Part shown: positions 44,762-64,000 of the stretch, one piece after another
Position numbering within the stretch: position 1 is the first letter of the stretch
Layout of the letters: every line of letters starts with the position of its first letter
Source: Marispirochaeta sp.
GTDB taxonomy: Bacteria > Spirochaetota > Spirochaetia > JC444 > Marispirochaetaceae
Direction of reading: 5' to 3'
DNA length: 64,000 nucleotides
Assembly (NCBI GenBank): GCA_963676835.2
Contig: CAXXFF010000002.1
Span: forward strand, 1,184,001-1,248,000
Program-made: the position numbers and the translations under genes
The notes under the pieces: model-generated
What the model saw: only the letters and a program-made list of their open reading frames with translations
Database searches by the model: none
What the model was told of the DNA's origin: nothing

Positions 44762-44941
44762 ATGACCAAGTCTGTGACTGTTAAAAAACTCCACGAAAAA
44801 TCAAAGCACAGGGATCGTGATTTCTGGTTGTCAAAAGATCCAGTAGAGCGGTTAAATGCCGTCGAATTCCTCAGGAAGCAGTTTTATGCTGAATATCCCG
44901 AAAGACTTCAGAGAGTTTATACAATTACTAAACTCAAATAA
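44762..44941 (+). CDS. Small partner of nucleotidyltransferase (putative antitoxin)
   Basis: DRDFW.SKDPVERL.AVE.LR pattern; overlaps next gene. Confidence 0.6.
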   Translation: MTKSVTVKKLHEKSKHRDRDFWLSKDPVERLNAVEFLRKQFYAEYPERLQRVYTITKLK

Positions 44942-45329
44942 TGTCCGATATCTTGTTGTCGGCGGATATGCTGTCGCTTATTACGGCTATCCGCGATATA
45001 CCGGCGACATAGATTTCTTTCTTGAATGTACTGAAGATAACGCCTCAGCTGTAATCCGGTGTCTTGAAGAATTCGGTTTGCAATCACTTGGAATAAGCAG
45101 AAAAGATCTTTTATCGCCCAATCAGGTAATACAGATAGGATATCCGCCGTTAAGGATCGATCTGCTAACAGCCGTCGATGGGGTATTATTTGAAAATGCA
45201 TGGGATAATCGCGTAATTGTAGATCTCGAGGATCTTAAAGTAAATTTTATTGGCAAAGATGATTTGAATACGAATAAAAGAAGTACCGGAAGGCTTAAAG
45301 ATCAGGCGGATGCGGAAGAGTTGATGTAG
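44886..45329 (+). CDS. Minimal nucleotidyltransferase (DUF6036-like)
   Basis: VGGYAV..YG.PRYTGDIDF and NK..GRLKD..D. Confidence 0.85.
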   Translation: MLNIPKDFREFIQLLNSNNVRYLVVGGYAVAYYGYPRYTGDIDFFLECTEDNASAVIRCLEEFGLQSLGISRKDLLSPNQVIQIGYPPLRIDLLTAVDGVLFENAWDNRVIVDLEDLKVNFIGKDDLNTNKRSTGRLKDQADAEELM

Positions 45330-46770: not shown

Positions 46771-49641
46771 ATGAACTCAAAAACCTTGTCTCTTTTCATT
46801 CTTATGGCGTGTACCGCCTTTTCTGCCTTTTCTGATACTTCCGATCCTCTTCTACGGCTGAATACGGAGATGCATACAGCGCCTATCAGGGCTATCGACA
46901 CAGATGCTGAATACCGCTTTGTTCTCACCGCAGGAGACGATAGAGTTGCACGCCTGTGGGATGCTGCTTCCGGCCGTCTTCTGAAGATTCTACGACCTTT
47001 TATTGGAGAAGGTAATGATGGACGGCTTTATTCCTGCGCCTTGTCTCCCGATGGGACTGAGGCTGTCGTGGGAGGATGGACCGGCCCTAGCGGGGATAAA
47101 TCCCTCTATTTTTTCAATACCGCTTCGGGTTCTCTAACCCATAGAATTGACGGCTTTAAAGATGTCATCAACTGTCTGAAATACTCTGATAACGGACGCT
47201 ATCTGGCTGCTGGTTTGGGTGGATCTAATGGCGTTTCTGTTATCTCTTTGCGGAACCACTCTGTTTACAAGCAGCTGGATGGATACAGCGCTCAGGTAAA
47301 GGGGTTATCGTTTTTCAGTGATGGGCGTCTGGCAGTTGTCTCCTATGATGGAGGAGTTCGTCTATACGACCGGCAGTTCGGGCTGGTGAAAAAGGTTCAG
47401 CTTGATAAAGAAAGCAGCCCCCGGGGTGTTGCGGTTTCTCCGGATGACAGCCGGATTGCCATTGCCTACTATAACAGCAGCAAGGTGGAAGTATACGACG
47501 GCATGAGTCTGAGACTTCTTTACACTGCAGACAGTGATGGAATAGATGAAAATGACGGCATGGTTAATGTTGCCTGGTCTTCTGACGGGCGCTATCTCTA
47601 TGCTGGCGGGCGCTACTCCAAATCCTTCGACGGAAAATGGTGGAGGGTTGTGCGCCGATGGGATAATCAGGGCCGTGGCATCTATGAAGATTTTCCCGGC
47701 AGCGGAAACACCATATGGGGACTGGTTTCCCTGAATAATGGGAACCTGCTGGTTGCAGGACACCGGCCCGACTGGGCACGTATAAATAACGCCGGCGAAC
47801 AGAGCCTTTACCGGGAGGGCATGATCCTCTCATTCCGACCGAAAAGCTTTGACAAGGATATGCTGTTAAACCCGGATGCCAGTAAAGTTACCTTTAAGCC
47901 AATGTCTGTCGATCCCATGACATTTTCCATTTCCGAACTCAGTCTGACGGAAGGCAGCTTTGAGGGGAATGCTTTCCGCTCCCAGGTGGGCGGAATAACG
48001 GTGACGGACTGGGATAACGGTGAAAATCCCCGCATAAACGGAACCCTTGTAGAAGGTTTCTCAAAATCTGAATTATGCCGAAGTGTCTCGGTTTCCCCCG
48101 ATGGAGATACGGTGATTCTCGGAACAGGCTGGTACTTGAGGGCCTATAATGCGGAAGCAGAATTGCTCTGGAAGATTCCTTCACCCGGTGAAAACTGGGC
48201 GGTAAACTGCTCTGCCGATGGAAAAACCGTGGTTGTTGGCCTTGGTGACGGGACTCTCCGCTGGTACAGACTTTCCGACGGCAAAGAGCTCTTAAATCTC
48301 TTTGTTCATTCTGACTGCAAACGCTGGGTCCTCTGGACACCCTCGGGTTACTATGCCTGTTCTCCTTCCGGAGAGGACCTGATCGGATGGCATATAAACC
48401 ATGGCCGGGACAGATCTGCTGATTTCTTCAGTGCATCCCGTTTTTCAGAGCGTTTCTACCGTCCGGATGTTGTTGCCCTTATGCTGGAAACTCTTGATGA
48501 GGACCAGGCCATAACCAGGGCTAACCGCCAGCGGAATATCCGGACAACCAACGCGAGCATTGCATCCATACTTCCTCCGGTTCTTGCTATACTTTCTCCC
48601 TCCGAAGGAGCAACTCACAGTTCTTCAACTATTCAGCTGCGCTATTCCGTACGAACTCCAAATAATGATCCTGTTCAGGAGGTGAGGGCAATGGTGAACG
48701 GCCGCCCGGTGGAAACTTCCCGGGGATTGAAGCTTGTCGCCTCCGGTTCCAGCGGAACTGAACAGTCTATAAATATTTCTCTTATGCCGGGAGAAAACTA
48801 CATCTCCCTCATGGCAAAGAATTCAACCTCATGGAGTGATCCTGCCACTGTTATGGTGAAGTACCAGGAACGGCAGCAATCATTTGTGGCAAAGCCGAAA
48901 CTCTATATTCTGGCAGTGGGGGTTTCGGATTACGCCAATCCTGATTACCGTCTTAATTATGCCGCCAAGGATGCCCGGGATTTTGCTGCAACCATGAAGG
49001 CCCAGGAGGGAGGGATTTATGAGGATGTTGAAATAAGGCTCCTCACCGACAAGGATGCAACCCAGGATAACGTTTTTGACGGTCTGGACTGGATACGGGG
49101 CCAGGCTACGGCTCGGGATGTTGCCATGATTTTTGTGGCGGGCCACGGGATTAATGATAACTCAGGCCGCCTCTATTACCTGACTCACGAGGCGGATGTG
49201 GACCGGCTGCGCCGGACCAGTGTTGCCGCCGATGAGTTTACCCAGACTATTCAATCCATTCCCGGCAAGGTTCTCTACTTTATGGACACCTGCCACTCCG
49301 GCGGGGTGAACATAGCCTCCCGCAGAGGGATCAATAGTGTAGATATGACGGGAATTATCAACGAGCTCTCTTCCGCCGAGAGCGGAGCGGTGGTTTTTGC
49401 CTCCTCTTCCGGAAAGCAGTACTCCCTGGAGGACGCAAGCTGGGGTAACGGTGCCTTTACCAAGGCCCTTATCGAGGGGCTCAAGGGTGGTGCGGACTAC
49501 ACCGGAAGCGGTAAAATAACTATCAATATGCTGGATCTGTATATTTCCGAACGGGTAAAGGAACTTACCCGGGGGCAGCAGACGCCGACCACTGCCAAAC
49601 CTGACACAGTGCCGGATTATCCGGTGGCGGTTAACGAATAG
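46771..49641 (+). CDS. Exported WD40 beta-propeller + Ig-like + caspase-like (C14) protease
   Basis: Signal peptide from ATG 46771; WD repeats; LAVGVSDY..L.YAAKDA; catalytic AGHG and DTCHSG. Confidence 0.9.
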   Translation: MNSKTLSLFILMACTAFSAFSDTSDPLLRLNTEMHTAPIRAIDTDAEYRFVLTAGDDRVARLWDAASGRLLKILRPFIGEGNDGRLYSCALSPDGTEAVVGGWTGPSGDKSLYFFNTASGSLTHRIDGFKDVINCLKYSDNGRYLAAGLGGSNGVSVISLRNHSVYKQLDGYSAQVKGLSFFSDGRLAVVSYDGGVRLYDRQFGLVKKVQLDKESSPRGVAVSPDDSRIAIAYYNSSKVEVYDGMSLRLLYTADSDGIDENDGMVNVAWSSDGRYLYAGGRYSKSFDGKWWRVVRRWDNQGRGIYEDFPGSGNTIWGLVSLNNGNLLVAGHRPDWARINNAGEQSLYREGMILSFRPKSFDKDMLLNPDASKVTFKPMSVDPMTFSISELSLTEGSFEGNAFRSQVGGITVTDWDNGENPRINGTLVEGFSKSELCRSVSVSPDGDTVILGTGWYLRAYNAEAELLWKIPSPGENWAVNCSADGKTVVVGLGDGTLRWYRLSDGKELLNLFVHSDCKRWVLWTPSGYYACSPSGEDLIGWHINHGRDRSADFFSASRFSERFYRPDVVALMLETLDEDQAITRANRQRNIRTTNASIASILPPVLAILSPSEGATHSSSTIQLRYSVRTPNNDPVQEVRAMVNGRPVETSRGLKLVASGSSGTEQSINISLMPGENYISLMAKNSTSWSDPATVMVKYQERQQSFVAKPKLYILAVGVSDYANPDYRLNYAAKDARDFAATMKAQEGGIYEDVEIRLLTDKDATQDNVFDGLDWIRGQATARDVAMIFVAGHGINDNSGRLYYLTHEADVDRLRRTSVAADEFTQTIQSIPGKVLYFMDTCHSGGVNIASRRGINSVDMTGIINELSSAESGAVVFASSSGKQYSLEDASWGNGAFTKALIEGLKGGADYTGSGKITINMLDLYISERVKELTRGQQTPTTAKPDTVPDYPVAVNE

Positions 49642-49675
49642 ATTTTAGAGGATTTTTTGTTTAGAAGGTGATGAC

Positions 49676-51211
49676 ATGCGAATTAAAAGTATTAGTGTAA
49701 GTATTCTTGTTCTGTTTGTTTCAGTACAGCTCTTTTCCCTGCCCCGCTGGGCGCGGGAATACGGGGCGGTAACCCCCTACAATACGGAGGAAAACGTTAC
49801 CGGATTCGGAACCTCCGAGTACGGTGATGACATCCCCATGGAGGCGGCAAAGCTCCGGGCCGCAGACGACCTGATCCGCAAGGTGAAGGTGGAGATAAAG
49901 AGTAATATAACCCTCACTGCCAATGATACTTCCGGCCGCGGATCTTCCGGGATGGATCTGGTGACCACCAGTACCAGTGTACTTCAGCTGGAAGGTATCG
50001 AATACGAGACGGAACGGGACGGCAGCACCTGGTATGCCCTTGCCCATATAAGCAGGGATTCCATTGCCCGCACATACAAGCAGAAGGCGAAGGAGACTGT
50101 AACGGATCTTGAGGCAGGTCTTTCCCAGTGTGATTCCGCTTTTAACGCCGGAAAAAACAGCGACGCCTATGACCTGGCAGTCAATCTTCTGCCCTTGTTT
50201 GACCGGCTTAAGGATGAAGCGGGCATCTACCGCTTTGCAGCGGCCGCATCCCTGCCTGCAGAAGTTTACGGACGCCGTATCAGCAACGACGGCAAGGCAG
50301 CCTATGAACTGGCACAGCTGAAAAGCCGCATCCGGGACCTTTCCGGTTCCGATGCCGCTGATCCGGCAGATGCCGTGCGGCGGATTGCCGCCATGTTCGC
50401 CGAACAGGGAATTTCGGCCTCGGACTTTACCGTCGCTCCTTTCCTCTTTCAGAATACCGACTTTTCCAGCCAGTTCGGCCAGTACATGGGCCAGCGCCTG
50501 CGGAGCGAACTGCTGAAGCGGCTGCCGCCGGTACGGGGCAAAGCTGCAGTTGCTGTACAGGGCCGCTACCTGGTGCGGGAGGGCAAGGTAGAGCTTTCTG
50601 TCTCCGCCCGCAGTGTGGACGGAAGCTCAAGCGGATCCGCCTGGGCGGAGTTTCCCGAAGTCAAACTGCCGGGAGATCTGTCGGTGGAACCCGGCAACTA
50701 CGCGGAAGCCATTCAGGACATGCTGCAGCTTGCCGACGGGGCCCTTGTTGACGGCGGCTTGAGTATCGAGGCCTGGACGAACCGCGGACGGGATGCGGAG
50801 AGCCTGGTTTTCGGCGACGGGGAGGAGCTTGAGCTCTATTTCCGGGTGAATCAGCCTGCCTTTATTCAGATTACCTATGCTCTTGCTACTGGAGAAAAGG
50901 TGCTGCTGGATGAGAGCTACTATATCGGCGATGACAAGGTAAACCGGGTGGTTAAATACCCTTATGCCTTTGAGGTATGTGCTCCCTATGGAGTTGAACG
51001 GATGATTATAAGTGCCTTCAGCAAGGAACCGCCGAAACCGAATGTAATAATCCGGCTTATTGACGGTGAGGAGTACGAGGTTTTTACCAGTGCAGCTGCT
51101 GCTGTCATGCAGACCCGGGGAGTTCACCGTGTCAGGGAAAAGGATGACGACGGCATGAAGACCGGAGAAATGATCCTGACCATGACCACCGTGCCGAAGC
51201 TGGCCGATTAA
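49676..51211 (+). CDS. Exported LPP20-like + DUF4384-like protein
   Basis: Signal peptide; P.W..GFG..A...A...L LPP20 pattern; C-terminal GEELELYFRVNQPAF...PYGVE. Confidence 0.65.
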   Translation: MRIKSISVSILVLFVSVQLFSLPRWAREYGAVTPYNTEENVTGFGTSEYGDDIPMEAAKLRAADDLIRKVKVEIKSNITLTANDTSGRGSSGMDLVTTSTSVLQLEGIEYETERDGSTWYALAHISRDSIARTYKQKAKETVTDLEAGLSQCDSAFNAGKNSDAYDLAVNLLPLFDRLKDEAGIYRFAAAASLPAEVYGRRISNDGKAAYELAQLKSRIRDLSGSDAADPADAVRRIAAMFAEQGISASDFTVAPFLFQNTDFSSQFGQYMGQRLRSELLKRLPPVRGKAAVAVQGRYLVREGKVELSVSARSVDGSSSGSAWAEFPEVKLPGDLSVEPGNYAEAIQDMLQLADGALVDGGLSIEAWTNRGRDAESLVFGDGEELELYFRVNQPAFIQITYALATGEKVLLDESYYIGDDKVNRVVKYPYAFEVCAPYGVERMIISAFSKEPPKPNVIIRLIDGEEYEVFTSAAAAVMQTRGVHRVREKDDDGMKTGEMILTMTTVPKLAD

Positions 51212-51233
51212 TAAAGGTTCCGGATAGTTTCTC

Positions 51234-52505
51234 ATGTTCAAGCTGGATGGTCTTGGAAACATACGCAAGGTCCGTTGGACCGGTCTGCGTCCGGGGGTGG
51301 TGATCCTTTCGGGGGTCTCCATCAACGATCATCCCATCCCCGAGCTGACGGGCTTTCCGGTGCTTACCGAATCTTTAATTTCTGATCTCTCCTCCCGTTA
51401 CCAGTTTCTTGCCGGCCGGGAGGTTGTTGTTGCCGAGGCGGTCTATAACTATTCACCCTTTGAGTTTGCCGATCAGCTCCGGCATTCAGAAAAACAGAGA
51501 AACAGCTTCAACCGTCTGCGCCGGGATTTTGAAGAGACGAAAAAGATGGTCCTTCTCAATATGGGCCTGGACCTTCAGACGGATGTTCCCGTAATCGGGT
51601 CTGACCATGTTGACCGGGAGTACATGGTGAAGGATACCTACAACTCCTTTTCCTATCTTTATGGGCTTGGAGAGGACCTGGATGCGATTCCCTCCTTTTT
51701 TCACCGCATGGACTTGAGCCTTTCCCTGGCCGACCTGGTTACCAACCGGCTGCAGGAGAAATTCAATGTCCCCGATGACAGCGAGGTGGTGCTGCATCTG
51801 GTGGTTGATTTTTCAAGAAGCATGGACTCCATGGGCAAGCTCGATCTGGTGGTACAGACGGTTAATGCTTTTTACAGCTTTTACTCTGAGCTTCTTGCCA
51901 ATACCACCATAAAACTCTACACCTTTTCCGATGAGTGCCGGCCGGCCCGGTATCCGCTGCAGGAGGCAGGAGTCCGCCGGGGAAACACCGCCTACGGCTC
52001 TTTTATGAAAAAGGTTCTGCACCTTAAGGAAAAGGAAAAACGCAACAAGATAATCCTCTTTACCGACGGAGTGCCCACGGACCGCAGTGAAGCACTGAAG
52101 ATGGCGGAGCTGATAAAGAAGAACTGCCTGGACTATACCCAGATCATCTTCGACATTAAAGAGGAGAGGCGCACCGAGGTTGTCTATGCTGACGGTATGG
52201 TTGTGGACGCCGTTGACAATATGGTGGAAGAGCTGTCGGCGGGTATGTCGGAACGGGTCCTCTCCGACGAGGATCTGGACGCAAAAATGAAAGGGATCTT
52301 TGATGACTTTACCGAAGTAGCTGAAAGCTGCGGCGGTAATCAGATCATCCTTAAAATAAATGAACTGCTCAATCTGGTAACGGTGGAATGTTATGACCGC
52401 TATCTCGGTCTGTTAAGCCTCGCCACGAGAGCAGAAACTGTCCAGGTTGAAGAGACCCGGACTGATAAGCCGCAGGTAAAAAAATGGAGCCCCCCGCGGG
52501 TGTAA
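51234..52505 (+). CDS. Cytoplasmic VWA-domain protein
   Basis: MIDAS VVDFSRSM, T, LFTDG; no signal peptide. Confidence 0.75.
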   Translation: MFKLDGLGNIRKVRWTGLRPGVVILSGVSINDHPIPELTGFPVLTESLISDLSSRYQFLAGREVVVAEAVYNYSPFEFADQLRHSEKQRNSFNRLRRDFEETKKMVLLNMGLDLQTDVPVIGSDHVDREYMVKDTYNSFSYLYGLGEDLDAIPSFFHRMDLSLSLADLVTNRLQEKFNVPDDSEVVLHLVVDFSRSMDSMGKLDLVVQTVNAFYSFYSELLANTTIKLYTFSDECRPARYPLQEAGVRRGNTAYGSFMKKVLHLKEKEKRNKIILFTDGVPTDRSEALKMAELIKKNCLDYTQIIFDIKEERRTEVVYADGMVVDAVDNMVEELSAGMSERVLSDEDLDAKMKGIFDDFTEVAESCGGNQIILKINELLNLVTVECYDRYLGLLSLATRAETVQVEETRTDKPQVKKWSPPRV

Positions 52506-52526
52506 AAAAACAGCAGGAGAAAAAAC

Positions 52527-53735
52527 ATGAATAAGCTGTTCACCATTGTGTTGTCCTTCGTAATATTCTTTTCTTTATCCTTAAGCATGTCCGCCCAGGA
52601 CTGTGTCAGCTTTGTGGAGGTTCAGGAGAAGACGCAGTTTGTGCTGGTTGTAGACCGCAGCGGCAGTATGGCCGGCGATCCCCTTCGGGATGCGAAGCAG
52701 GCGGTAATAAACTTTATTAACAGTATGCAGCCCGGAGATTCGGCGGCCCTGATTACCTTTGAAGATCAGGTGCATGTGAATCATAACTTTTCCTCCGACC
52801 GGGCAAGCCTGGTGCAGGCTGTACGGAATATTGAGACCGGCGGCAGGACCCGTTTTTACGATGCCGTGGCAGCTGCCGCCCGTATGCTGAAAGGGAAAAG
52901 CGGCCGTACGGCGATTCTTTTTCTTACCGATGGTAACGACAACGAAAGCAGTTTTTCCCTGAATAATATACGGCAGATGAATATCGGTGAACAGAATGTC
53001 GTTTACGGCATTGGGCTGGGGAATATCGACCATAATGGCATAAGCGCCCTGAGTACCGCCACCGGCGGACAGTACCGGGCAGCCCGGGGATCGGGTGAAC
53101 TCAGTTCTTTGTATGCTGACCTGCAGAAACTCTATTACACCGAATATCGGGATACCCGGAACAGCAGCGGAGGGTACACGGTTACCTCTCTTCCCGGCGG
53201 GAAAAGTGTCTACTTTGACGGAACCCTGGCCGGTACAACACCGCTGAATATGGACGGGATCAGTCCCGGCGAACATGTGGTGCAGGTGGAGTTTGAAAAC
53301 GGCCTGTGGGAATGCCGCAGTCAGTTAAAAGCGGGAACCAAGGGTTATATTACCGCCCGGTCTGCCGACCTTCCTGGTATTTTTTACATTGAATCATCTC
53401 CCCGGGGTGCGGCGGTTTTCATTGACGATACCTACGTGGGGCTCACTTCCATGATACCTTCACCTGTGGTGAATGGTTCCCGGGATCTTTCCGGACAGCT
53501 TCAGGTTAAGGATCTTCCCGAAGGTAAGCATACGGTAAAAATTATAGCCGCCCCGGATCTTGAACTCTCCGCAGCCCAGGAGATGGTGTTTGATTTCGAA
53601 ATGCGCAAGGCAAGCCGTTATGTGATTGTTAACGTGCTGGGAGGAAAGGCCCTGTTTGCCAACGGGGAACGGAAGCAGCGAAATATTGGCGATATGATTG
53701 AGAATGCCTTCAGCGACCCTATGTTTAATGACTAG
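52527..53735 (+). CDS. Exported VWA + 2x PEGA protein
   Basis: Signal peptide; VVDRSGSM, GRTRFYDA, FLTDG; VTSLPGG..GTTPL and IESSPRGAAVFIDD. Confidence 0.85.
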   Translation: MNKLFTIVLSFVIFFSLSLSMSAQDCVSFVEVQEKTQFVLVVDRSGSMAGDPLRDAKQAVINFINSMQPGDSAALITFEDQVHVNHNFSSDRASLVQAVRNIETGGRTRFYDAVAAAARMLKGKSGRTAILFLTDGNDNESSFSLNNIRQMNIGEQNVVYGIGLGNIDHNGISALSTATGGQYRAARGSGELSSLYADLQKLYYTEYRDTRNSSGGYTVTSLPGGKSVYFDGTLAGTTPLNMDGISPGEHVVQVEFENGLWECRSQLKAGTKGYITARSADLPGIFYIESSPRGAAVFIDDTYVGLTSMIPSPVVNGSRDLSGQLQVKDLPEGKHTVKIIAAPDLELSAAQEMVFDFEMRKASRYVIVNVLGGKALFANGERKQRNIGDMIENAFSDPMFND

Positions 53736-53781
53736 TCCAAAAATTAGCTTAATGACTGATCGGATTGGAAGAGGTAATGTC

Positions 53782-55461
53782 ATGACACGAATAAAGATAG
53801 TCGTACTGCTGCTGATGCTTGTTCCGGCAGCACTTACCGCCCAGCAGGCCCAGGGGCTGGACCCGGTCCCCGGGGCACTGAATATCTCCCTGCCCCAGGC
53901 GAATCCCCGGGGCATTGTCTCCGCAGCCGGAGCTGCTCCCGGAGACGGTGAGACTGCACAGGCCCTGCCTGCAAAGGTTGACCTGCAGCAGTTTCTGCCG
54001 CCGGTGAAAAACCAGGGGCAGATCGGCAGTTGCGCCGCCTGGGCCAGCGTCTATTACGCCAAGACAATACAGGAGAACCAGGAGCGCCGCTGGGGTGCGG
54101 ATAATGCGGACCACCAGTACAGCCCTCTTTTTACCTACAACCAGATTACCAAAGGGGTAAATGAGGGCACCGCTATTCAGGATCATATGGTGCTGATGGA
54201 AAAGCTCGGGGCTGCCCCGTTCAGCAGTTTTCCCTACGCGGATAACCTCAATGTCCAGCCCGATGCTAAGGTACTGAAGGCGGCGGAAAAGTATCCGGCT
54301 TCGTCTCACAAGAACCTGGATACCTACGATTACACAACAAAAACCTGGTCGGTAAAGCTTGAGTCCGTTAAAGCTACCCTTGCCGAGGGGCTGCCTGTTG
54401 TGGGGGGATTTCAGGTCTATGAAAACCTGCACAGCTACCGGGGCGGTATTTACAACAAGGTAGCCGGGGCTGCTTCCGGCGGTCATGCGATGTGCATTAT
54501 CGGCTATGACGATTCTAAAAATGCTTTGCACCTGGTTAATTCCTGGGGAACATCCTGGGGAGACCAGGGCTTTCTCTGGATGGACTACGATCTGTTTGAA
54601 GAGCTCTGCACCTACGGCTGCGTGGTTATGTATGACACGGTTATTCCCGTACCTGATAGCATTCAGGCTCCGGTGAATCTTGAAGGCAGCAGGGGGGTAT
54701 ATAAAAACCGCATAGAGCTCTCCTGGACTGCCGTGGATGGGGCGGAACTCTATATCGTCTACCGGGTGGATAACGCCGAGGGAGTTCTGAAAGAGGTCGG
54801 CCGGACCGATGAACCCGCCTGGATCGAAGAGAATCTTCCCCCCGGGGTGACCTATGTCTATGCCGTAAAGGCTGCGAAGAAAAAGGGCTCCGGTCTGCTT
54901 GAGAGCGATTTCAGTGAGATAGCCGAAGGATGGACAGTGGAAGAGAAGTTTCCTCCGGGAATCCCCTCTAATCTTACCTTCGGATTTTTTATGGGAAACC
55001 CCGTTCTGGTTTGGCTGCCCGTGGAAGAGGCTGAAGGCTACAACGTCTACCGCTGGTCCGATGCTGAAGAGGCCTTTATGCTGTTAGGCAGTTCAAAGGA
55101 TTCGGCCTTTATGGATTCCGGGTATAAAAATCTTAATGAAGCAGGAATTATCTACTATATCGTGCAGGCCTATAACGCCAACGGCGAGGGCTACCCCACG
55201 GAGAGCCTTGCGGTGCTGAAGGAGATAGCCGAAGAGAAGCCCGAGGAAGAGATTATCGAAACCGATACCCTGAAGGATGATATTCCCGCAGAAAAGAAAG
55301 AGGCCTTCGACGGTGATTTCTACCGCACCGATTACTTTGATTACGAGTACACCGTGAAACAGTTCCGGGAATACTACGAGAAGGAGATGCAGGCCTTCCG
55401 GGATTTTCAGAAGAACGAAGCGGACAGCTTTGAGGCCTGGAAGCGGCAGCACAGCCGGTAG
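53782..55461 (+). CDS. Exported papain-like (C1A) cysteine protease with FN3 repeats
   Basis: Signal peptide; LPAKVDL mature start; NQGQIGSCAAW, GHAM, VNSWG catalytic motifs; two FN3-like repeats. Confidence 0.92.
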   Translation: MTRIKIVVLLLMLVPAALTAQQAQGLDPVPGALNISLPQANPRGIVSAAGAAPGDGETAQALPAKVDLQQFLPPVKNQGQIGSCAAWASVYYAKTIQENQERRWGADNADHQYSPLFTYNQITKGVNEGTAIQDHMVLMEKLGAAPFSSFPYADNLNVQPDAKVLKAAEKYPASSHKNLDTYDYTTKTWSVKLESVKATLAEGLPVVGGFQVYENLHSYRGGIYNKVAGAASGGHAMCIIGYDDSKNALHLVNSWGTSWGDQGFLWMDYDLFEELCTYGCVVMYDTVIPVPDSIQAPVNLEGSRGVYKNRIELSWTAVDGAELYIVYRVDNAEGVLKEVGRTDEPAWIEENLPPGVTYVYAVKAAKKKGSGLLESDFSEIAEGWTVEEKFPPGIPSNLTFGFFMGNPVLVWLPVEEAEGYNVYRWSDAEEAFMLLGSSKDSAFMDSGYKNLNEAGIIYYIVQAYNANGEGYPTESLAVLKEIAEEKPEEEIIETDTLKDDIPAEKKEAFDGDFYRTDYFDYEYTVKQFREYYEKEMQAFRDFQKNEADSFEAWKRQHSR

Positions 55462-55506
55462 TAAAAAACGTTTAATAGAATCAGCTGAAAACTAACGGAG
55501 TACATC

Positions 55507-56178
55507 ATGAAAAAACTGATTACAATTTTACTGACATTCACCACTCTCATATCCCTGTCTGCTCTCCCTGAGCAGGCAGATATACCTGACTGGTATCTTA
55601 ATCCCCCGGAACCCGAAAATAAAATCGTCGGACTTGGCGCGCATAAAGCGGATAACCCCGGCTCCTCGGTTATTCTCTCCCTGGTTCACAGCCTTGGGCA
55701 GATATCAACTATTGCTGCGGCAAAATATGAGAATGCAGAAACCACCTACGATAATGAAGAAGGGCTTCCGGATGTCAAGTTTGAAGAGGCTGTTCTCAAA
55801 GGTAAGGCTATGGTCAGTATAGGGACGTGCATTATACATGCGGTTTACACTGATTATCTCCAGACTACAAGCAATGAGGAAGGTGAACAGACTATCTCTT
55901 TTGCAGAGTTAATTGAGAAAGTCCTTCTGCCCTATAAAGGAGGATATGTCTGCCTGACCAGTACGGTGCAGGACAGTGCGGTGGATGATGATGCAGATCA
56001 TAAACAGCACAGTAATATTGAGCCCGATTTTTCTCCCCGGGATTTTTACTATCAGCTTATGGCCATTCTCGAAGAGGCCGGCTGTGAGATTGAGAAGTAT
56101 TTTGCCGAGGATGGTACGGTGTATACCAAGGCTGTAATAAGCTGGGATGCGGTGAAGGCTCTGGCAGAAGAGAGTTGA
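55507..56178 (+). CDS. Exported LPP20-like protein
   Basis: Signal peptide; PDWYLNPP...VGLG; C-terminal DGTVY. Confidence 0.6.
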   Translation: MKKLITILLTFTTLISLSALPEQADIPDWYLNPPEPENKIVGLGAHKADNPGSSVILSLVHSLGQISTIAAAKYENAETTYDNEEGLPDVKFEEAVLKGKAMVSIGTCIIHAVYTDYLQTTSNEEGEQTISFAELIEKVLLPYKGGYVCLTSTVQDSAVDDDADHKQHSNIEPDFSPRDFYYQLMAILEEAGCEIEKYFAEDGTVYTKAVISWDAVKALAEES

Positions 56179-56287
56179 GGAATTATCGAATAGTCTATGC
56201 TCTGAGTGTAAAAAGTAAAAGTGTGAATACAGTTAATGGCTTAACAACTCGAACACTAAAAAAGTTGTAAAACTGGTGAGGATTTAA

Positions 56288-59200
56288 ATGAGAAAAATAA
56301 CACTATCTGTACTTATGTTCCTGGTCACAACTTTATTTTTTAGTTGCGCTTCTACAACCTCATTGTTGCGAATTGATTTAAACGGTCCCGATATGGAGTT
56401 TGTATCGGAGAAAGAGAATTCTCCTGAAATTTCAACAGAAGTAAACAGCTATTTTGAGGGAAAAAGCGTCTATAGTTTTAACAACCAGTACAGAGCTGTC
56501 TGGAAAAATGAATATTGCTTTATAGAGAACTTCGATACAGGTGAAAAATCCCGAATTTTTACTGTAGGTAGAGGCGTGACAGATATTGTCTTTGCCCCGG
56601 ATAACCATAGCTGTGCAGTCCTTTGTTATGGGGGAGATTTACTTGTCGTAGATATAGAAAGTCTTAAGATTATATCGGAATTAGAAGTTGATACTGAAAC
56701 ATTTAGCCCTGAAAAAGTTGTTTACTCAAACAATGGTAATGTTCTCTGTTTAAGGTACACTAATACGTTCTCTTTCTGGAATACAGAGACCGGGGAGTAT
56801 TTAAGTACCATACAGCTTAAGAGCGGACCTTATACTTGTGCTATAGATGATATTTCCATGGAAATTCTGGTAACAAAGCCGTATACCAAAGCTGGTTCTC
56901 ACCGTTTTGACGTATATAGTATTCTGACAGGTGCTTCTGTCAGAACATTTAATATAAATCTCGGTCGTATTTATCCATATGTGGAAAGCTCTATTGTTTT
57001 CTCCGGTGATGGCAAAAAAATAATCAGAACAGGTTCTACTACAGACGGATTTAAACAACGCACACGGGCACTGACGTGCTACGACGCCAATAACGGAGAA
57101 AAGATATGGGAACATGGAGGATCCGAAGAGGCTCCATTGAATATTGATGTTGTCCCGGACTCTTTTCCGAGTGAGTTTAAACTGCAATGTAGTGGCAAAG
57201 AAACTGTTTCTGTAGTTTCATCTTCTTCATATTTTTATAAGCTGTCCGGCAATGACAGTGCTGTTCCGGGAGAAGAGCAGACTCGTCTTTGGGAGATATC
57301 TATTGCAGATGGTTCTATAATTGACTCTTTTCCCGTCAACAGCCCGGGTTCAAAAAGTTCAAACAGAGAAATAGTGTCCGACCAGAACAAAATAATTGAT
57401 GCATCAAATGCGGGAAGAATGTTTTCGAGCGAACCGGGCACACTCAAGTTTTCTCAGAATGGGGTTTATTATACCTGGGATATTGAAAAAGGCAGTTTGA
57501 AGTCTGTTCTTGATTCGAAAGACCTTGCAGATGGAGTTACCTGTTATGGTGTAAACAGTATCCTGAGCCTGGGTGTTATCGGCGTAGCGAATCAGGCATA
57601 TCAGTATGAACTCTGGAATTTTGATCTTGCCAAGAGGATTGCCGCAATAAACCTTGAAGACTATGCCGATGCCGGGTTTTGTGATCCTGAACATATAACC
57701 AGTGTACACGTAAGCCCTACGGGAAAGTCTATTCTGTTCTTTATCAAAAACTATAAAGACCCTGACTATGTTTTAGTATGGGACATAAACAGACAGCAGA
57801 AAGCAGTTTTTCTCCAGGGAGAAAACTGGCATCACGTCGGATATCGAAGTGAAGAAATTATCGGATGTTATGACTCATATTCTGACAGTGCTCCTGAATA
57901 TTTTAATCTTGTATCAGGCCAAAAATCCGCAGCCTTTAATTTAAAGAAAAGTAATGAAACAATTCATGTGAAGAATGAAGGCGATCGTTTAGTATTTTAC
58001 TATTTCAATGATAAACATGATGAGGCAGAAATTGATTCTTTTTCTATACAGCCTTTGAGAAAATTAATGGGAGAAAGACCTTTCAGTATTCTTGATTACC
58101 ATCCTGAGAATCATGCTGTCAGTGTTATTCAGGATAAGACTCTTGCAATGTACAGTTTATCTGAGCAGGCACTTATCTGGAAAAAAGAGATTCCTGGTTT
58201 GCTGAAAGATGATCATCTGTCGGTGTATTACTTAAAAACCGAGTCCGGACTGGCAAGAGTCGATCTCAGTACAGGTCATATTTATGACTCTTCTGATCTC
58301 GGCACTATGCATGAATATATTATCAAGGGTACACCAATTGGTATTAAGCTATGGGAAAACAAGTATGCAAGTTGGGAAATACCTGAGAATGAACTGATAA
58401 AAATTGTTACCACCACCAACGGCGAGTGGTTTGTCATTACCCCCGACGGCCGCTTCGATTGCTCTGCCGGTGGAAAAGATTTTATCAAATTCTACAAAGG
58501 TGAAGAAGAATACGCATCGGATCAGCTCTGGGATTCTCTGTATACTCCCGGGATTCTGGCACTTGCTGTCTCAGGAGAATTAAAACCCCGGGAAGAAGAG
58601 TCAATCATCTCCACTCTGGAACAGGCTCCTGAAGTAACTATCATTTCCCCGGAATCAAAAACGACGGAGGCGAACCAGGCTGTTGTAAAGGTACAGGTTG
58701 AAGACAGCGGCAACGGTATCGGCGATGTCTATTTATATGTAAACGGAAAAACCTACAACCGCTCCACCCGGGGGCTGAAGATTGCACGCACCGGGAGCAC
58801 CTACGAGTTTTCCATACAGCTGATTCCCGGAGAAAACAGAATAAAGGCGGTTGCAGAAAACGGCAACGGAACCATTGAAGGCTGGAGTGATGAGGTTGTT
58901 ATTACCTGTACTCCTCCCGAGCAGATACTGCCTTCACTGCATATACTCTCCATCGGTGTAAGCGATTATCAGGACCAGGGAATCCGATTGAATGCTCCCG
59001 ATGATGACTCCCGAATGATAGCGAAAGTGTTTTCCGATCTTGGTGAAAATCTATATGGGGATGTTACACAGACGGTTCTGGTAGACCGGGATGCAAGGCT
59101 GAACGGGATACGGGCAGGCTTTAAATCAATGCTGGAAACTGCAAACCCCGAGGATACGGTAATAGTATTCTTCGCCGGTCACGGATTTACCGAAAATCAA

Positions 59201-59689
59201 CGCTTTTATTACCTGCCCCAGGATGCAGATATAACTGACCTCCCTGGTACGGCCTTATCAATTGATGAAATAAGCCGGCTGACCCAGGAGATCAGTGCTT
59301 CCAAAATAGTTCTTCTCTTCGACACCTGTCAGAGCGGGGATGCCGCCATTACTCTTAGTCAGATTGCCATGTCCCGCGGTTTTGATGAACGAAAAGCCAT
59401 TGCCGATCTGGCAAAGCAGAGCGGTATTATGGTATTTGCCGCTACGAGCCCCGGCATGAATGCCTATGAGATTTCCGAACTGGGGAACGGCGTTTTTACC
59501 TACAGCATTATCAAGGCTATTAAAGAAAAGAAGGATGCAATTTCCCGGGATTCCTATGTGACAATAAACAAGCTCATGTCCGAGGTTGATTTTCTTACCC
59601 GGGAAATCAGTTACGAGTACCTGGGATTCTCCCAGAATCCGATCCGGTATAACTTCGGCCAGGATTTCAGTATTGGTAGATTGAAGTAA
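56288..59689 (+). CDS. Lipoprotein: divergent beta-propeller + Ig-like + caspase-like (C14) protease
   Basis: FFSC lipobox; degenerate WD repeats; TPDGRFD linker; LSIGVSDY; catalytic AGHG and DTCQSG. Confidence 0.88.
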   Translation: MRKITLSVLMFLVTTLFFSCASTTSLLRIDLNGPDMEFVSEKENSPEISTEVNSYFEGKSVYSFNNQYRAVWKNEYCFIENFDTGEKSRIFTVGRGVTDIVFAPDNHSCAVLCYGGDLLVVDIESLKIISELEVDTETFSPEKVVYSNNGNVLCLRYTNTFSFWNTETGEYLSTIQLKSGPYTCAIDDISMEILVTKPYTKAGSHRFDVYSILTGASVRTFNINLGRIYPYVESSIVFSGDGKKIIRTGSTTDGFKQRTRALTCYDANNGEKIWEHGGSEEAPLNIDVVPDSFPSEFKLQCSGKETVSVVSSSSYFYKLSGNDSAVPGEEQTRLWEISIADGSIIDSFPVNSPGSKSSNREIVSDQNKIIDASNAGRMFSSEPGTLKFSQNGVYYTWDIEKGSLKSVLDSKDLADGVTCYGVNSILSLGVIGVANQAYQYELWNFDLAKRIAAINLEDYADAGFCDPEHITSVHVSPTGKSILFFIKNYKDPDYVLVWDINRQQKAVFLQGENWHHVGYRSEEIIGCYDSYSDSAPEYFNLVSGQKSAAFNLKKSNETIHVKNEGDRLVFYYFNDKHDEAEIDSFSIQPLRKLMGERPFSILDYHPENHAVSVIQDKTLAMYSLSEQALIWKKEIPGLLKDDHLSVYYLKTESGLARVDLSTGHIYDSSDLGTMHEYIIKGTPIGIKLWENKYASWEIPENELIKIVTTTNGEWFVITPDGRFDCSAGGKDFIKFYKGEEEYASDQLWDSLYTPGILALAVSGELKPREEESIISTLEQAPEVTIISPESKTTEANQAVVKVQVEDSGNGIGDVYLYVNGKTYNRSTRGLKIARTGSTYEFSIQLIPGENRIKAVAENGNGTIEGWSDEVVITCTPPEQILPSLHILSIGVSDYQDQGIRLNAPDDDSRMIAKVFSDLGENLYGDVTQTVLVDRDARLNGIRAGFKSMLETANPEDTVIVFFAGHGFTENQRFYYLPQDADITDLPGTALSIDEISRLTQEISASKIVLLFDTCQSGDAAITLSQIAMSRGFDERKAIADLAKQSGIMVFAATSPGMNAYEISELGNGVFTYSIIKAIKEKKDAISRDSYVTINKLMSEVDFLTREISYEYLGFSQNPIRYNFGQDFSIGRLK

Positions 59690-59725
59690 TCTTATCTGGG
59701 TGAAGCGAAGAGAGAAGATAAAAAC

Positions 59726-62035
59726 ATGTCTGAAACTAATGAACAAAACCACTACGAACTGTTATGCCGGGAAGCGGAAAATCCCGGCTTTACCGACCGG
59801 CCCTTTGAAGATTTGATAAACTTTTATGTTTCCCTTTCGAACTACGTTAAAAGAAACGGCCTTCTTGCCATGGAGGAGATTGTAGAAAAGCTTCCGATGG
59901 ATTATGCCCAGGGCTTTCTCTGGGAGGTGGTTTCCGGAGTAGATCCGGGGATCATGTTCGGCCGGGGTATGGAAAAGGCAAGGGCAGGCTCCGATGGCGA
60001 GCTCTCTCTGAAAATTGCCTTTCATCTCTTTGCCGCCCTGCTGCTCCAGAACGGAGTGGGCGGCGGGAGCCTGAACGAAAGGCTGCAGGCTTTCTGCAGT
60101 CAAATTACCCCGCCGGTCTCTGAAGCGGATTTTAAGAAAATCGAAGACTACATACGGGCGCAGCACGGGACTCTTATGATCCCCGTGGAGCATACCGCTG
60201 CGGAGCTTCTTCGCGGACATACCAAGGAGTACGACCGGGCCCGGGAACTTCTCTCTTCCGTGGAAAAAGAGAAGCTTGGCAGCGACAGCCTCTACAACCT
60301 CGCCCTGATCAATTATCTTGATAACGATGACTGGAGCATTGCCATCGGGCTGGAATATGCCATTGCCGCAGCAGAGAAGGGGCACCGGCAGGCGGTCTAT
60401 ACCGCGGGACATCAGCTTCTGACCGGGGTTCCGGGGTTCTCGGAAAATATGAACGGCCTGGTAACTCCCGCCGATGAGAAGACCGCGATTATGGGCTACA
60501 CCCCCTATCCCCGTGATGTGGTAACAGAAAAGGATATTCCCCGGGGAATTGAACTGCTCGAAAAGGCCGCCGGGCAGGGCAGTGTTAATGCCTGCATGAC
60601 CCTGGCAGAACATTATGGGGCTGCTGGTAATGCTGCACAGACATTTGCCTGGCTCCAGAAGGGCGTGGACAACGGGTCCGAGAAGGCCGCGGAGATTATG
60701 GGCGACTCCTTCAGCGGCCGTCCGCTCCGGCATCCTTTTACCTGTCTTGTGATGGACCCGGGCAGCCTTACGGATGACAACTACAAAGGGGCAATCGGCT
60801 TTTATTACAAGGCCTACAGAAACCTTCCCGATCTTATCCCGAGAATACTGGAAACGATTTTTCTCCACCTTAACCCCGGTGCATATCCGAAGCTCCTTTC
60901 CGAACTCTACAAGTATCTCAATGATCCCTTCGACTTCGATACTGCCCTGGTGCGGTTTTTCAATGATGAGGAGCATGAGAAGATTGCGGCGGAGGATATC
61001 CTCGGGGTGGCATACTTTGGAGGTATCGTTCGGCCGGATCTGGAAAAGGCCTTTTTCTATCTGAACCGGGCCTACTCCGAAGGCCGGAAAACCGGGTACA
61101 CCGTCTACCTGCTTGCACTCTTGTACCTGAAAAAGGATGAAGGCTTTACAAGCTACGATCCCGTAAAAGCACATTCCCTCTTTATGGAGGCGGCGGACCT
61201 TGGCCATCTCCCTTCCGCGCAGCAGGCAGGATTCAGCTGTTTCTCCGGAATGCGGGCATATCTGCCGGCAAAGTTCGCGGAAGATCCGGGGGCGGCTGAA
61301 TCGGAAGCGATGTTTGCATCCCCGGTGACTGATGCGGAACTCAACCTGAAGGATCTGGAGAAGGCGGAAAAATATCTGAAACAGGCTGCAGATAAAGGGC
61401 ATCTCTTTTCCTGCCTGCGTCTGGCGGACCTTTATGCTTCGCAGAACAACCCGGCAGAGGACAATGTCTACCGCAGGAAGGCCTCCTGGTTCGGGGACAG
61501 CAATTCATCCCTTGCGGTTTCTCTGGATTACGCCCGTAGGGGCTTTGCGGAACATTATAACGACATTGTTCTCTACTGCACCATTGCCGCCCTGCAGCAG
61601 GATTCCGGCGCCTATTACAGCTTTGTTTCCATGCTGGAAGAGGAAGAGACGGTGACCCTAGCCGATGCTGATCTCAACAGGTTTCTCGAAATGAGTGCCG
61701 GGATAAAATGCAAGTACTGCGCTCTTATGCTGGGCCTGCGGCTCTATGCAGGCGTCGGGTGTGAGCCGGATGAGTCCGCTGCCATGGAGTATCTTGTCCG
61801 GGCTGAAGATTTCTCGGCATATGAAAATCGAAACGGATATTTCAACCAGCTGGAGATCGACAGCCTAAGGGCCCTGGCGGAGATATACGGAAATCCGCAA
61901 TCATCCTTTTATGATGCGGCAAAGCCGGAACCCCTCCGGCAGAAGGCTGATTCAATGGAAGCGGAAATGAAGCAGTCTCAGGCCTTTATTGATGATCTGC
62001 TTATGCCCCGGCCGAATACGGACAGTGAAGATTAA
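59726..62035 (+). CDS. Sel1-like repeat protein with N-terminal MotA-cytoplasmic-like segment
   Basis: Repeats AAEKGH, KAAGQG, AADLGH, AADKGH; N-terminal KRNGLLAMEE...VVSGVDP; no signal peptide or TM. Confidence 0.75.
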   Translation: MSETNEQNHYELLCREAENPGFTDRPFEDLINFYVSLSNYVKRNGLLAMEEIVEKLPMDYAQGFLWEVVSGVDPGIMFGRGMEKARAGSDGELSLKIAFHLFAALLLQNGVGGGSLNERLQAFCSQITPPVSEADFKKIEDYIRAQHGTLMIPVEHTAAELLRGHTKEYDRARELLSSVEKEKLGSDSLYNLALINYLDNDDWSIAIGLEYAIAAAEKGHRQAVYTAGHQLLTGVPGFSENMNGLVTPADEKTAIMGYTPYPRDVVTEKDIPRGIELLEKAAGQGSVNACMTLAEHYGAAGNAAQTFAWLQKGVDNGSEKAAEIMGDSFSGRPLRHPFTCLVMDPGSLTDDNYKGAIGFYYKAYRNLPDLIPRILETIFLHLNPGAYPKLLSELYKYLNDPFDFDTALVRFFNDEEHEKIAAEDILGVAYFGGIVRPDLEKAFFYLNRAYSEGRKTGYTVYLLALLYLKKDEGFTSYDPVKAHSLFMEAADLGHLPSAQQAGFSCFSGMRAYLPAKFAEDPGAAESEAMFASPVTDAELNLKDLEKAEKYLKQAADKGHLFSCLRLADLYASQNNPAEDNVYRRKASWFGDSNSSLAVSLDYARRGFAEHYNDIVLYCTIAALQQDSGAYYSFVSMLEEEETVTLADADLNRFLEMSAGIKCKYCALMLGLRLYAGVGCEPDESAAMEYLVRAEDFSAYENRNGYFNQLEIDSLRALAEIYGNPQSSFYDAAKPEPLRQKADSMEAEMKQSQAFIDDLLMPRPNTDSED

Positions 62036-62045
62036 GGAATAAGAT

Positions 62046-63803
62046 ATGAAACGAACATTTTTTGCAGCACTGTTTTTAACTATTCTAATGGCCGTAACGG
62101 CTTTTGCACAGAACAAGACGGCCCTGCTGATCGCTAACGGGGACTATCAAAACTTCTCCTCCCTGGCAAACCCGGTGCCCGAGGCCCGGCAGCTCAGAAG
62201 CGCTCTGCAGCGTCTTGGATTTCAGGTAACCCTCCTGACGGATGCTGATAAAGAGGAGATGATTATCGGCCTGCGGAACTTTCAGCGTTCCGTTAAAAGC
62301 CGGGGCGGTGTCGCCTTTTTTCACTACGGCGGCCATGCGGTGCAGGTGGGGGGTAAGAACTACCTTATTCCTGCAAATGCAGATATTCCCGATGAGGATT
62401 ACGTAAGCCTCCGCGCCATGGATGCGGAGGAGATTATGGTCAGCCTTGAGCATTCCGGAAGCGACAGCAATATCGTTATTCTCGACTCCTGCCGCAACAA
62501 TCCGCTGCCAGCAGGTTCGGGCAGAAGCGCGTCCCGCGGTCTGGCGGTTGTCGGGAAAGAGCCGCCCAATACGGTGATCGTGTACTCTGCAAAATCGGGA
62601 CAGGTTGCCCGGGACGGTGTATTTACCCCGGCTCTTACCAGGGCTCTCACCTCTCCGGGATTAAGCATTCAGGAGATCCTGATGCAGACCCGCCAGAAGG
62701 TGTATGAACAGACCAAGGGTGCCCAGATTCCCGGTGAGTACAACCAGCTTTTTGAACCGGTATACCTCGCCGGCCGCGGTAGTTCAGGCGGCGGAAACAA
62801 TATAAGCTTCGGCGCGGTAACTGTGGAACCCGGTTCGCTCACCATAAATGTAGTTGAAGCGGGCACCCTGGAAATCAACGGACAGTCCGTGCAGATACCC
62901 TCCGGAGGCAGCATTCCGGTGAATGGACTTGATCCGGGGAGTTACATTCTTTCTATGCAGTATGGAAATGGACTTCGGGAAACTAAGACTGTTGAGGTTG
63001 AGAGCGGGATCAGTAAGAGTATTGCCTTCAGTTATGTGGTTAGAACGTCTACGGTTAGCCGCATGTCTTTAGACGATAGCTTTGTGCTGGTAAAAGCTGG
63101 AAGTTTCACCATGGGGTCACCATCCAATGAACCTGACAGGAAGGATAATGAAGCACAACATCAGGTAACCCTGACCCGGGATTTTTACATTAGTAAATAC
63201 GAAGTAACTCAGGGATTGTGGAAAGAGGTAATGGGAAATAATCCTTCCGAAGTAAGTACAGGTATCGATGTTAATTATCCAGTTAATGAAATCAGCTGGA
63301 TTGAAGCGGTGGATTTTTGCAATAAACTCAGTCGCCGACAAGGCCTCAATCCCGTTTATAGTGGTTCGGGAGATAGTATCCGCTGTGACTTCAATGCCAA
63401 CGGCTACCGGCTGCCCACGGAAGCAGAGTGGGAGTTCGCGGCGCGTGGTGCTCAGTCGTTAGAGAGCTATCAGATTTATGCGGGCTCGAATAGTTTGGGT
63501 AATGTTGGCTGGTTTTACAACAACAGTGGCGGTAAAAACCATGCGGTAGGGCAGAAGTCACTTAATCCCCTGGGGCTTTATGATATGAGTGGGAATGTAT
63601 TTGAATGGTGCTGGGACTGGTATGGCAATTACAGTGGAACGGTAATAAATCCAACGGGAGACGAATCAGGATCTTACCGAGTAACTCGTGGGGGCAGCTG
63701 GCTTCAACGCGATAGGTTCAACCGTTCGGCTTTTCGAGACTTTCGTAGTCCCTATGCGAGTGCTGATGATGTTGGCTTTCGCCTTGTTCGCACTGCAAAT
63801 TAG
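62046..63803 (+). CDS. Exported caspase-like (C14) + PEGA-like + FGE-sulfatase (CLec-fold) protein
   Basis: ALLIANGDY, L.NP, YGGHA, LDSCRNNP; FTMGS, YRLPTEAEWEFAARG, GLYDMSGNVFEW, RGGSW, GFRLV. Confidence 0.92.
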   Translation: MKRTFFAALFLTILMAVTAFAQNKTALLIANGDYQNFSSLANPVPEARQLRSALQRLGFQVTLLTDADKEEMIIGLRNFQRSVKSRGGVAFFHYGGHAVQVGGKNYLIPANADIPDEDYVSLRAMDAEEIMVSLEHSGSDSNIVILDSCRNNPLPAGSGRSASRGLAVVGKEPPNTVIVYSAKSGQVARDGVFTPALTRALTSPGLSIQEILMQTRQKVYEQTKGAQIPGEYNQLFEPVYLAGRGSSGGGNNISFGAVTVEPGSLTINVVEAGTLEINGQSVQIPSGGSIPVNGLDPGSYILSMQYGNGLRETKTVEVESGISKSIAFSYVVRTSTVSRMSLDDSFVLVKAGSFTMGSPSNEPDRKDNEAQHQVTLTRDFYISKYEVTQGLWKEVMGNNPSEVSTGIDVNYPVNEISWIEAVDFCNKLSRRQGLNPVYSGSGDSIRCDFNANGYRLPTEAEWEFAARGAQSLESYQIYAGSNSLGNVGWFYNNSGGKNHAVGQKSLNPLGLYDMSGNVFEWCWDWYGNYSGTVINPTGDESGSYRVTRGGSWLQRDRFNRSAFRDFRSPYASADDVGFRLVRTAN

Positions 63804-63826: not shown

Positions 63827-64000
63827 ATGAAAAAATCAATAACCATTTTCCTAATGCTTCTAAGCCTCCTTTCCCTCACCGCCGAAAACCGCTACGCCCT
63901 GATTATCGGTAACAGCGAATACGCTGATTTCGGCAGTCTTCAGGAGCAGCCGGTAAACGATGCGGCTGACATCTCCGCCTCTTTAAAGCAGCTTGGCTTC
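63827..64000 (+). CDS. Exported caspase-like (C14) protein, 5' part only (cut by window end)
   Basis: Hand translation MKKSITIFLMLLSLLSLTAENRYALIIGNSEYADFGSLQEQPVNDAADISASLKQLGF; AAGGA SD; not in ORF track. Confidence 0.85.
   Translation, partial: MKKSITIFLMLLSLLSLTAENRYALIIGNSEYADFGSLQEQPVNDAADISASLKQLGF

Follow-up and report, generated by a model that had tools for sequence, protein, structure and literature searches.

Caspase-like (C14) proteases that cut after basic residues have been described in several systems. MALT1 cuts after Ser/Pro-Arg (PMC10756297, PMC3304489) and has Asp365, Asp462 and Glu500 as the acidic residues of its S1 pocket (PMC4357240), while the Microcystis orthocaspase MaOC1 is an Arg-specific C14 enzyme with autocatalysis at Arg219 (PMC7475262), whose reported substrate is an antitoxin in which the cut sites could not be mapped (PMC7935541). 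The type II metacaspase AtMC4 is described as self-inhibited by a linker residue, Lys225, held in S1, with activation upon cutting there. In Haliangium, a type III-B CRISPR system with SAVED-CHAT, PCaspase and PCi is described as containing a C14 protease that is activated by cleavage and a co-encoded inhibitor, PCi, that is itself cleaved. Proteases of this class with signal peptides occur commonly among bacteria, spirochaetes included, and the literature searched names no substrates or cut sites for them. Here we analyse a 64,000-nucleotide stretch of Marispirochaeta sp. contig CAXXFF010000002.1 (the window), in whose 4.43 Mb genome ten same-strand genes (A to J) form one run from 46771 to beyond 64000, with intergenic gaps of 10-109 bp. 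The run holds four C14 proteases with signal peptides (A, G, I and J), and a short Arg-Gly-hydrophobic motif (the tag) recurs in these proteases and in the product of gene B.

We consider it probable that this motif is the R|G recognition and cut site of exported, Arg-specific C14 proteases, with linker cleavage as the activating step and B as substrate or bait. The run would then encode an exported network of Arg-specific (paracaspase/metacaspase-like) C14 proteases, whose cut site, [T/S]-R-G-hydrophobic, is kept in three structurally unrelated loops. A cut in the first, the linker that follows the catalytic Cys, would probably activate the zymogen; the second, in the immunoglobulin-like (Ig) domain ahead of the protease in WD40-Ig-caspases, would be a built-in copy of the site; and the third, in the DUF4384 beta-sandwich of B, may turn B into a bait to be cleaved, or a substrate dedicated to these enzymes, through which their activity is reported or damped. 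Each of the Ig and DUF4384 sites is enclosed by strands belonging to a single sandwich, and a cut there would thus nick the domain rather than free it, exposing a new Gly-hydrophobic N-terminus. The motif was not found in the full-text literature searched, which covers few subscription journals and excludes supplements, and it may yet have been published elsewhere. What this analysis established, as set out below, is conservation, a predicted location in loops, acidity at S1 and co-occurrence.

The eight peptides on which the original prediction was built all lie in frame on the + strand, its coordinates marking the codon just before each Arg, and the enrichment that it called for is present: the 5,958 aa of the run contain [STP]RG[LIVF] 10 times, where 1.12 would be expected from our own call of 3,774 genes in the genome (p 3e-7), and a count of 10 arose in 0/1000 shuffles. 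Ranked by [STPR]RG[LIVF], the run comes first among ten-gene windows of the genome (12 matches vs 6 in the best unrelated window); plain RG is not enriched in the run (29 vs 21, p 0.06). The pattern was drawn post hoc from these sites and several of them are mutually homologous, and each site was therefore tested by conservation. Part of the 10 matches proved not to be conserved, with R257 of A replaced by Phe, Tyr or His in most of 61 homologues and R332 of papain E by Lys in 16/22. A further one of the 10 is R273 of the Sel1 protein H. Six of the eight quoted sites are kept, and the two that are not are GSRDLS in D and the propeptide Arg of E.

Gene A (46771..49641; residues numbered from an open reading frame counted from 46654) encodes a signal peptide, WD40 propellers, an Ig-like domain and a C14 protease (His831, Cys880). 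The Ig-loop tag of A, ETSRGLKLV (48712..48738, Arg690), and that of G, RSTRGLKIA (58760..58786, Arg828), are homologous in the pairwise alignment of the two proteins, in line with the equivalent Ig-domain position first proposed for them. Across 163 Ig-C14 segments, contributed by 119 proteins homologous to A (best 120 of 2,260 matches), Arg690 is present in 153/163 and Gly691 in 120/163, mostly with a hydrophobic residue next, at a median column identity of 39%; P2 is variable. The Ig-loop tag also occurs in plasmid-borne homologues from Bacteroidota and Alphaproteobacteria. A second WD40-Ig-caspase subfamily (L139, L136, L147, L148, L089, L102) has a conserved P[LI][FY]G..G[KR] Ig loop in place of the RG tag.

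The linker tags lie close behind the catalytic Cys, as had been claimed: ASRRGINS of A (49315..49338) places Arg891 at Cys+11, AMSRGFDE of G (59366..59389) places Arg1030 at Cys+16, and SASRGLAV of I (62526..62549) places Arg164 at Cys+15. Gene G (56288..59689) encodes a protein judged by eye to be a probable lipoprotein, with propellers, an Ig-like domain and a C14 protease (His965, Cys1014), and gene I (62046..63803) a signal peptide, a MALT1-like C14 protease (His97, Cys149) and an FGE-sulfatase domain. The fourth protease gene, J (63827..64000), continues past the window end, beyond which its linker, RSVSRGLTVV, supplies a ninth site. PF00656 scores above cut-off in all four proteases, and His-Cys dyads were located in A, G and I. 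In 63 single-domain homologues of A the linker is conserved as RR[GA] (R890 in 57, R891 in 61, G892 in 46), and the hydrophobic residue after Gly892 is not conserved; in tandem proteins the second protease domain has the Ig tag without the linker tag. A hand-picked set for the I subfamily shows Arg in 24/25, Gly in 25/25 and Leu in 25/25, with Ser at P2 in 16/25. Of the nine C14 proteins that a profile detects in this genome, eight carry RG in their linker and one was not parsed. One large caspase (G000:C3:491874-495899) bears tandem linker tags, SRGI and SRGL, ten residues apart.

The presumptive S1 pocket is likewise conserved. Asp773, Asp878 and Glu926 of A are invariant (63/63), and in I, Glu46 (Asp or Glu in 24/25) and Asp147 (25/25) align with the S1 aspartates of MALT1; the assignment was made by alignment alone, and the third acid of I is not firmly placed. 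Because these acids are conserved, a basic P1 residue is expected. MALT1 is the best solved sequence relative of I (E 1.7e-9) and, together with 3bij, a fold match of A; a sequence search with the Ig-caspase part of A against solved structures gave nothing significant.

Gene B (49676..51211) encodes a signal peptide, an LPP20-like region, a three-helix bundle, an LpoB-like region and a DUF4384-like beta-sandwich, with its tag, MQTRGVHR (51107..51130, Arg481; family consensus TRGLKK), before the last sandwich strand. Arg481-Gly482 is invariant in 29/29 orthologues of B (31-84% identity; the closest named relative, at 79%, is from Marispirochaeta sp., L002). Of 504 cluster representatives, the best 150 have Arg481 as the most conserved column of the domain (149/150, the sole miss being a truncated sequence), with a loop behind it whose length varies; R-G-[LFIMV] is found in 146/150, P2 is Thr in 92 and His in 23, and P4 is Ala, Val, Ser or Ile. 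A profile lacking the motif region retrieved 31 DUF4384-like domains, many of them B orthologues, that carry R-G-hydrophobic in 28 cases, RAL in 2 and KGL in 1. B itself falls below the PF14326 gathering score of 27 bits (17.7 and 21.6 bits), while a B-derived profile retrieves proteins that pass it, and in the ESM Atlas its top matches reach 0.92, with DUF4384 shares of 19-68%. Judged from these profile searches, the C-terminal domain of B is a distant member of DUF4384 (PF14326), a family described as often fused to protease domains and for which the descriptions found give neither function nor motif; the PF14326 model (81 positions) ends before the tag loop.

In line with the original prediction, all three sites that were modelled (the Ig loop and linker of A, and B) lie in low-confidence coil. 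In the AlphaFold2 model of A, Arg690 and the linker are in coil, with a predicted local distance difference test score (pLDDT) below 50 at model positions 105-107 and 111-114 (Ig loop) and 297-310 (linker), and the Ig tag is predicted to be flanked by strands of a single beta-sandwich. In B, Arg481 stands at the end of a helix, followed by a loop with pLDDT below 50 (model 459-470) and the last sandwich strand. Foldseek gave weak matches only for B, and VIA-align matched it to Lpp20 (Z 10.6), LpoB (Z 8.7) and macroglobulin-type sandwiches (Z up to 9.8), matches that speak to fold and not to function; a complex prediction of caspase I with the C-terminal domain of B scored 0.00, which is not evidence either way. 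The protein p35 is a cleavable protease inhibitor with an exposed reactive loop, and the modelled loop geometry of B is compatible with a PCi- or p35-like cleavable inhibitor.

The same conservation and loop data would also fit a pseudo-substrate or docking motif that is never cut, its Arg occupying S1 or an exosite so as to block the protease or recruit B. Both non-linker sites lie within a folded sandwich, where a cut frees nothing, and there are precedents in Lys225 of AtMC4 before its cleavage, in the inhibition of PCaspase by PCi and in MALT1, which is described as active uncut. We nevertheless regard this explanation as unlikely, if not negligibly so: Gly is a small residue of the kind that clan CD proteases favour at P1'; PCi and the AtMC4 linker are both described as cleaved in their turn; and neither Pro at P1' nor any other non-cleavable change was seen in the best 150 of 504 B representatives.

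Co-occurrence across genomes bears on which enzyme reads the tag. A C14 gene was found in 9/9 sampled genomes with the C-terminal domain of B compared with 178/400 overall (kinship uncorrected; two further matches, covering the N-terminal part of B only, were left out), in 5/5 additional B genomes, and in the flank of B at 7/15 loci. In another phylum, a C14 gene lay within the fetched stretch at 16/18 PF14326 loci, where tags vary and some DUF4384 proteins are tag-free; the DUF4384 query had no match on plasmids and one weak locus on viral contigs. A different factor could in principle read the tag, such as papain E, a trypsin-like enzyme, or a binder of the loop or of the cut end, since the prime side, G-hydrophobic-K/R, is the most conserved and looks ligand-like, and papain and trypsin-like genes are present in such loci. 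We think this improbable: the E papain alignment matched (E<=1e-60) in just 2/9 B-carrying genomes against 9/9 for C14, and the caspases carry the tag in their own linker.

The original prediction went further and took R|G as a general address on all partners, including the vWA-PEGA and papain proteins, from which the wiring of a cascade could be read. We examined 43 other caspase-selected loci, 40 of them in other spirochaete genomes and 3 elsewhere in this genome (L066 was excluded as it holds a B orthologue; open reading frame and signal-peptide calls were crude). Beyond the enrichment in the run itself, the pattern had 12 matches in 59 secreted same-run neighbours compared with 1 in 93 secreted unlinked genes, with four control motifs (K, E, Q or RA) flat, and TR[DGS] is frequent around the propeptide junction of papain-DUF4384 fusions. 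The excess, however, lies wholly in 9 DUF4384 neighbours (9 vs 0.43 expected; four of the nine are one family), the other 50 secreted neighbours being at expectation (3 vs 2.7), and 231/3,774 proteins of the genome bear the pattern. The two quoted sites outside the caspases and B point the same way. GSRDLS of D (53475-53492) reads GSLDLS in the 81% orthologue, and two distant orthologues, from L167 and L168, have a hydrophobic residue at the Arg position, giving Arg in 0/3; with full-length D as the query, none of 400 genomes yielded a relative at 1e-30. At the propeptide site of E, ANPRGIVS (53899-53922), Pro and Gly are invariant in 22 orthologues while the Arg position holds R 7, K 7, H 3, A 3, N 1 and W 1; being basic in 14/22, this site fits a general address better and is possibly cut, its composition suggesting that Arg is not required. 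A general address, and with it a cascade readable from sequence, is on balance very improbable. Because enrichment is confined to the DUF4384 neighbours of the 43 loci, the motif is, as far as these sequence comparisons go, a caspase-DUF4384 protease-partner tag.

Several further observations concern these families. Relatives of the E papain-FN3 protease occur in 73/75 genomes of family f20, a far wider spread than that of B, and a metagenome scan for the E papain yielded 3 loci. The papain-DUF4384 fusions (P0160, P0166, P0178, P0185, P0186, L065, L070, L162) often place TR[D/S] or SRE directly ahead of their mature domain, a motif that is a candidate for the activation site in this other family of papains. 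A TRGM near the C-terminus of a membrane transporter-like protein (C2:1151518) was taken as a chance match. At L149-L157, a recurring operon combines a WD40-caspase, a small DUF4384 protein (mostly GGNIRG/AGNVRG) and a CHASE2-adenylate-cyclase, through which the system could signal onwards.

In some loci, variant tags appear in both partners. At L163, TRNLVVED in the Ig loop of the protease is paired with TRNLVIED in the papain-DUF4384 protein next to it, with 7/8 residues in common (1/300 shuffles) and synonymous differences in 6 of the 7 shared codons, and by eye both partners are alike at L105 (KGL), L162 (RGL) and L161 (SRD[IL]). These sequences suggest a locus-specific tag code. Matched RGL, RNL, RDI and KGL tags, combined with a tethered Gly-hydrophobic N-terminus acting as a ligand, might even constitute an insulated periplasmic protease relay, in which the N-terminus exposed by the nick stays on its beta-sandwich and, for example, completes the active site of another caspase in trans; we regard this as a rather doubtful extension.

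The codons also bear on whether the motif arose by chance, or as a turn kept for structural reasons, or as a DNA-level word, given that CCCGGG, which underlies several sites, occurs 23 times in the run against 12.8 expected, that the pattern is post hoc and that some matches are structural. All six of six Arg codons occur at the B site across 19 orthologues, and together with the synonymous codons of the L163 pair this led us to reject an origin as a DNA word; the control motifs are flat, and the motif lies in low-confidence loops of three unrelated folds. Such explanations are barely credible overall and are largely excluded for the six conserved sites.

Our preferred reading of the motif as a cut site must also be weighed against several observations. 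Cleavage at these sites is predicted only, and it is by inference that we arrive at activation, the pairing of enzymes with sites and the bait role. Among 45 caspase genes of unselected loci, 23/41 parseable linkers carry RG (RG-hydrophobic in 19/41), and at 8/15 B loci B lies away from any caspase gene; the genome-level co-occurrence of B and C14 is uncorrected for kinship. A low pLDDT obtained with shallow alignments says little about disorder, and MALT1, the closest solved relative of I, is described as active without linker cleavage. Protease and partner tags do not match at L158 and L164, the L105, L161 and L162 pairs were unremarkable in a whole-protein 8-mer test (L163 alone of four stood out), and the permutation of locus-matched tags, run on 15 loci, was not significant (p 0.09), two of the four control centres having scored better.

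Pfam assigns WD40-Ig-C14 to A and G, weak LPP20 and DUF4384 to B, vWA to C, vWA-PEGA to D, papain-FN3 to E, Sel1 to H and C14-FGE to I, and signal-peptide-like starts, judged by eye without a predictor, are present in all genes except C and H. Gene C (51234..52505) is a tag-free vWA protein, D (52527..53735) the vWA-PEGA protein, E (53782..55461) the papain-family protease with FN3-like repeats, and H (59726..62035) a Sel1-repeat protein with RG matches. Gene F (55507..56178) encodes a secreted, tag-free protein that corresponds, as a gene of its own, to the C-terminal half of caspase J (35% identity across 217 aa, E 1e-40) and has no credible family (none in Pfam, one weak match in NCBIfam). 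In the Marispirochaeta sp. run of L002, the gene A copy is called in pieces (L002:7533-9962) and F, G and H are missing. The propeller region of G (window 56000-60000) has a G+C content of 0.40-0.46 compared with 0.50-0.55 in the rest of the run, and given this and its absence from L002, G is possibly a later insertion. Upstream of the run, 44856-45329 encodes a small DUF6036-like nucleotidyltransferase (below cut-off).

These results predict a specific P1 residue for each enzyme and a cognate partner, as substrate or as inhibitor, and they give DUF4384 its first functional lead, with the limit that the tag marks one partner family and not a whole cascade. A close likeness is to MALT1, which is the closest solved sequence relative of I, a top fold match of A, and a protease with an acidic S1 pocket that cuts at Arg P1, with Gly next to the Arg in many of its substrates. 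MALT1 differs in being cytosolic, active without a linker cut and partial to Leu at P4, whereas the run proteins are exported and their tags have a variable P4 (Glu in the A Ig loop) and are conserved on the P1'-P2' side. The small P2 and Arg P1 of a MALT1-type site are seen in the B and I families but not in the A Ig loop, and its hydrophobic or Leu P4 is seen in neither the A Ig loop nor the B family.

The other described systems differ in architecture. The AtMC4 linker is large and folded, whereas the linkers of the run are ~20 residues long and their site recurs in an Ig loop and on a second protein. The description of MaOC1, as far as it was available, mentions no DUF4384 partner. The PCaspase cascade is cytoplasmic where the run is exported, and its description, as far as it was available, gives no shared cut motif; Pfam, NCBIfam and PADLOC detected no CRISPR, SAVED-CHAT, cyclase, Cas, sigma factor or kinase in the run, the generic caspase model being the only defence-related match. 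In mechanism, linker cleavage as the activating step would parallel Lys225 of AtMC4, Arg219 of MaOC1 and the activation of PCaspase, and B, as a dedicated substrate or bait, would be comparable to PCi.

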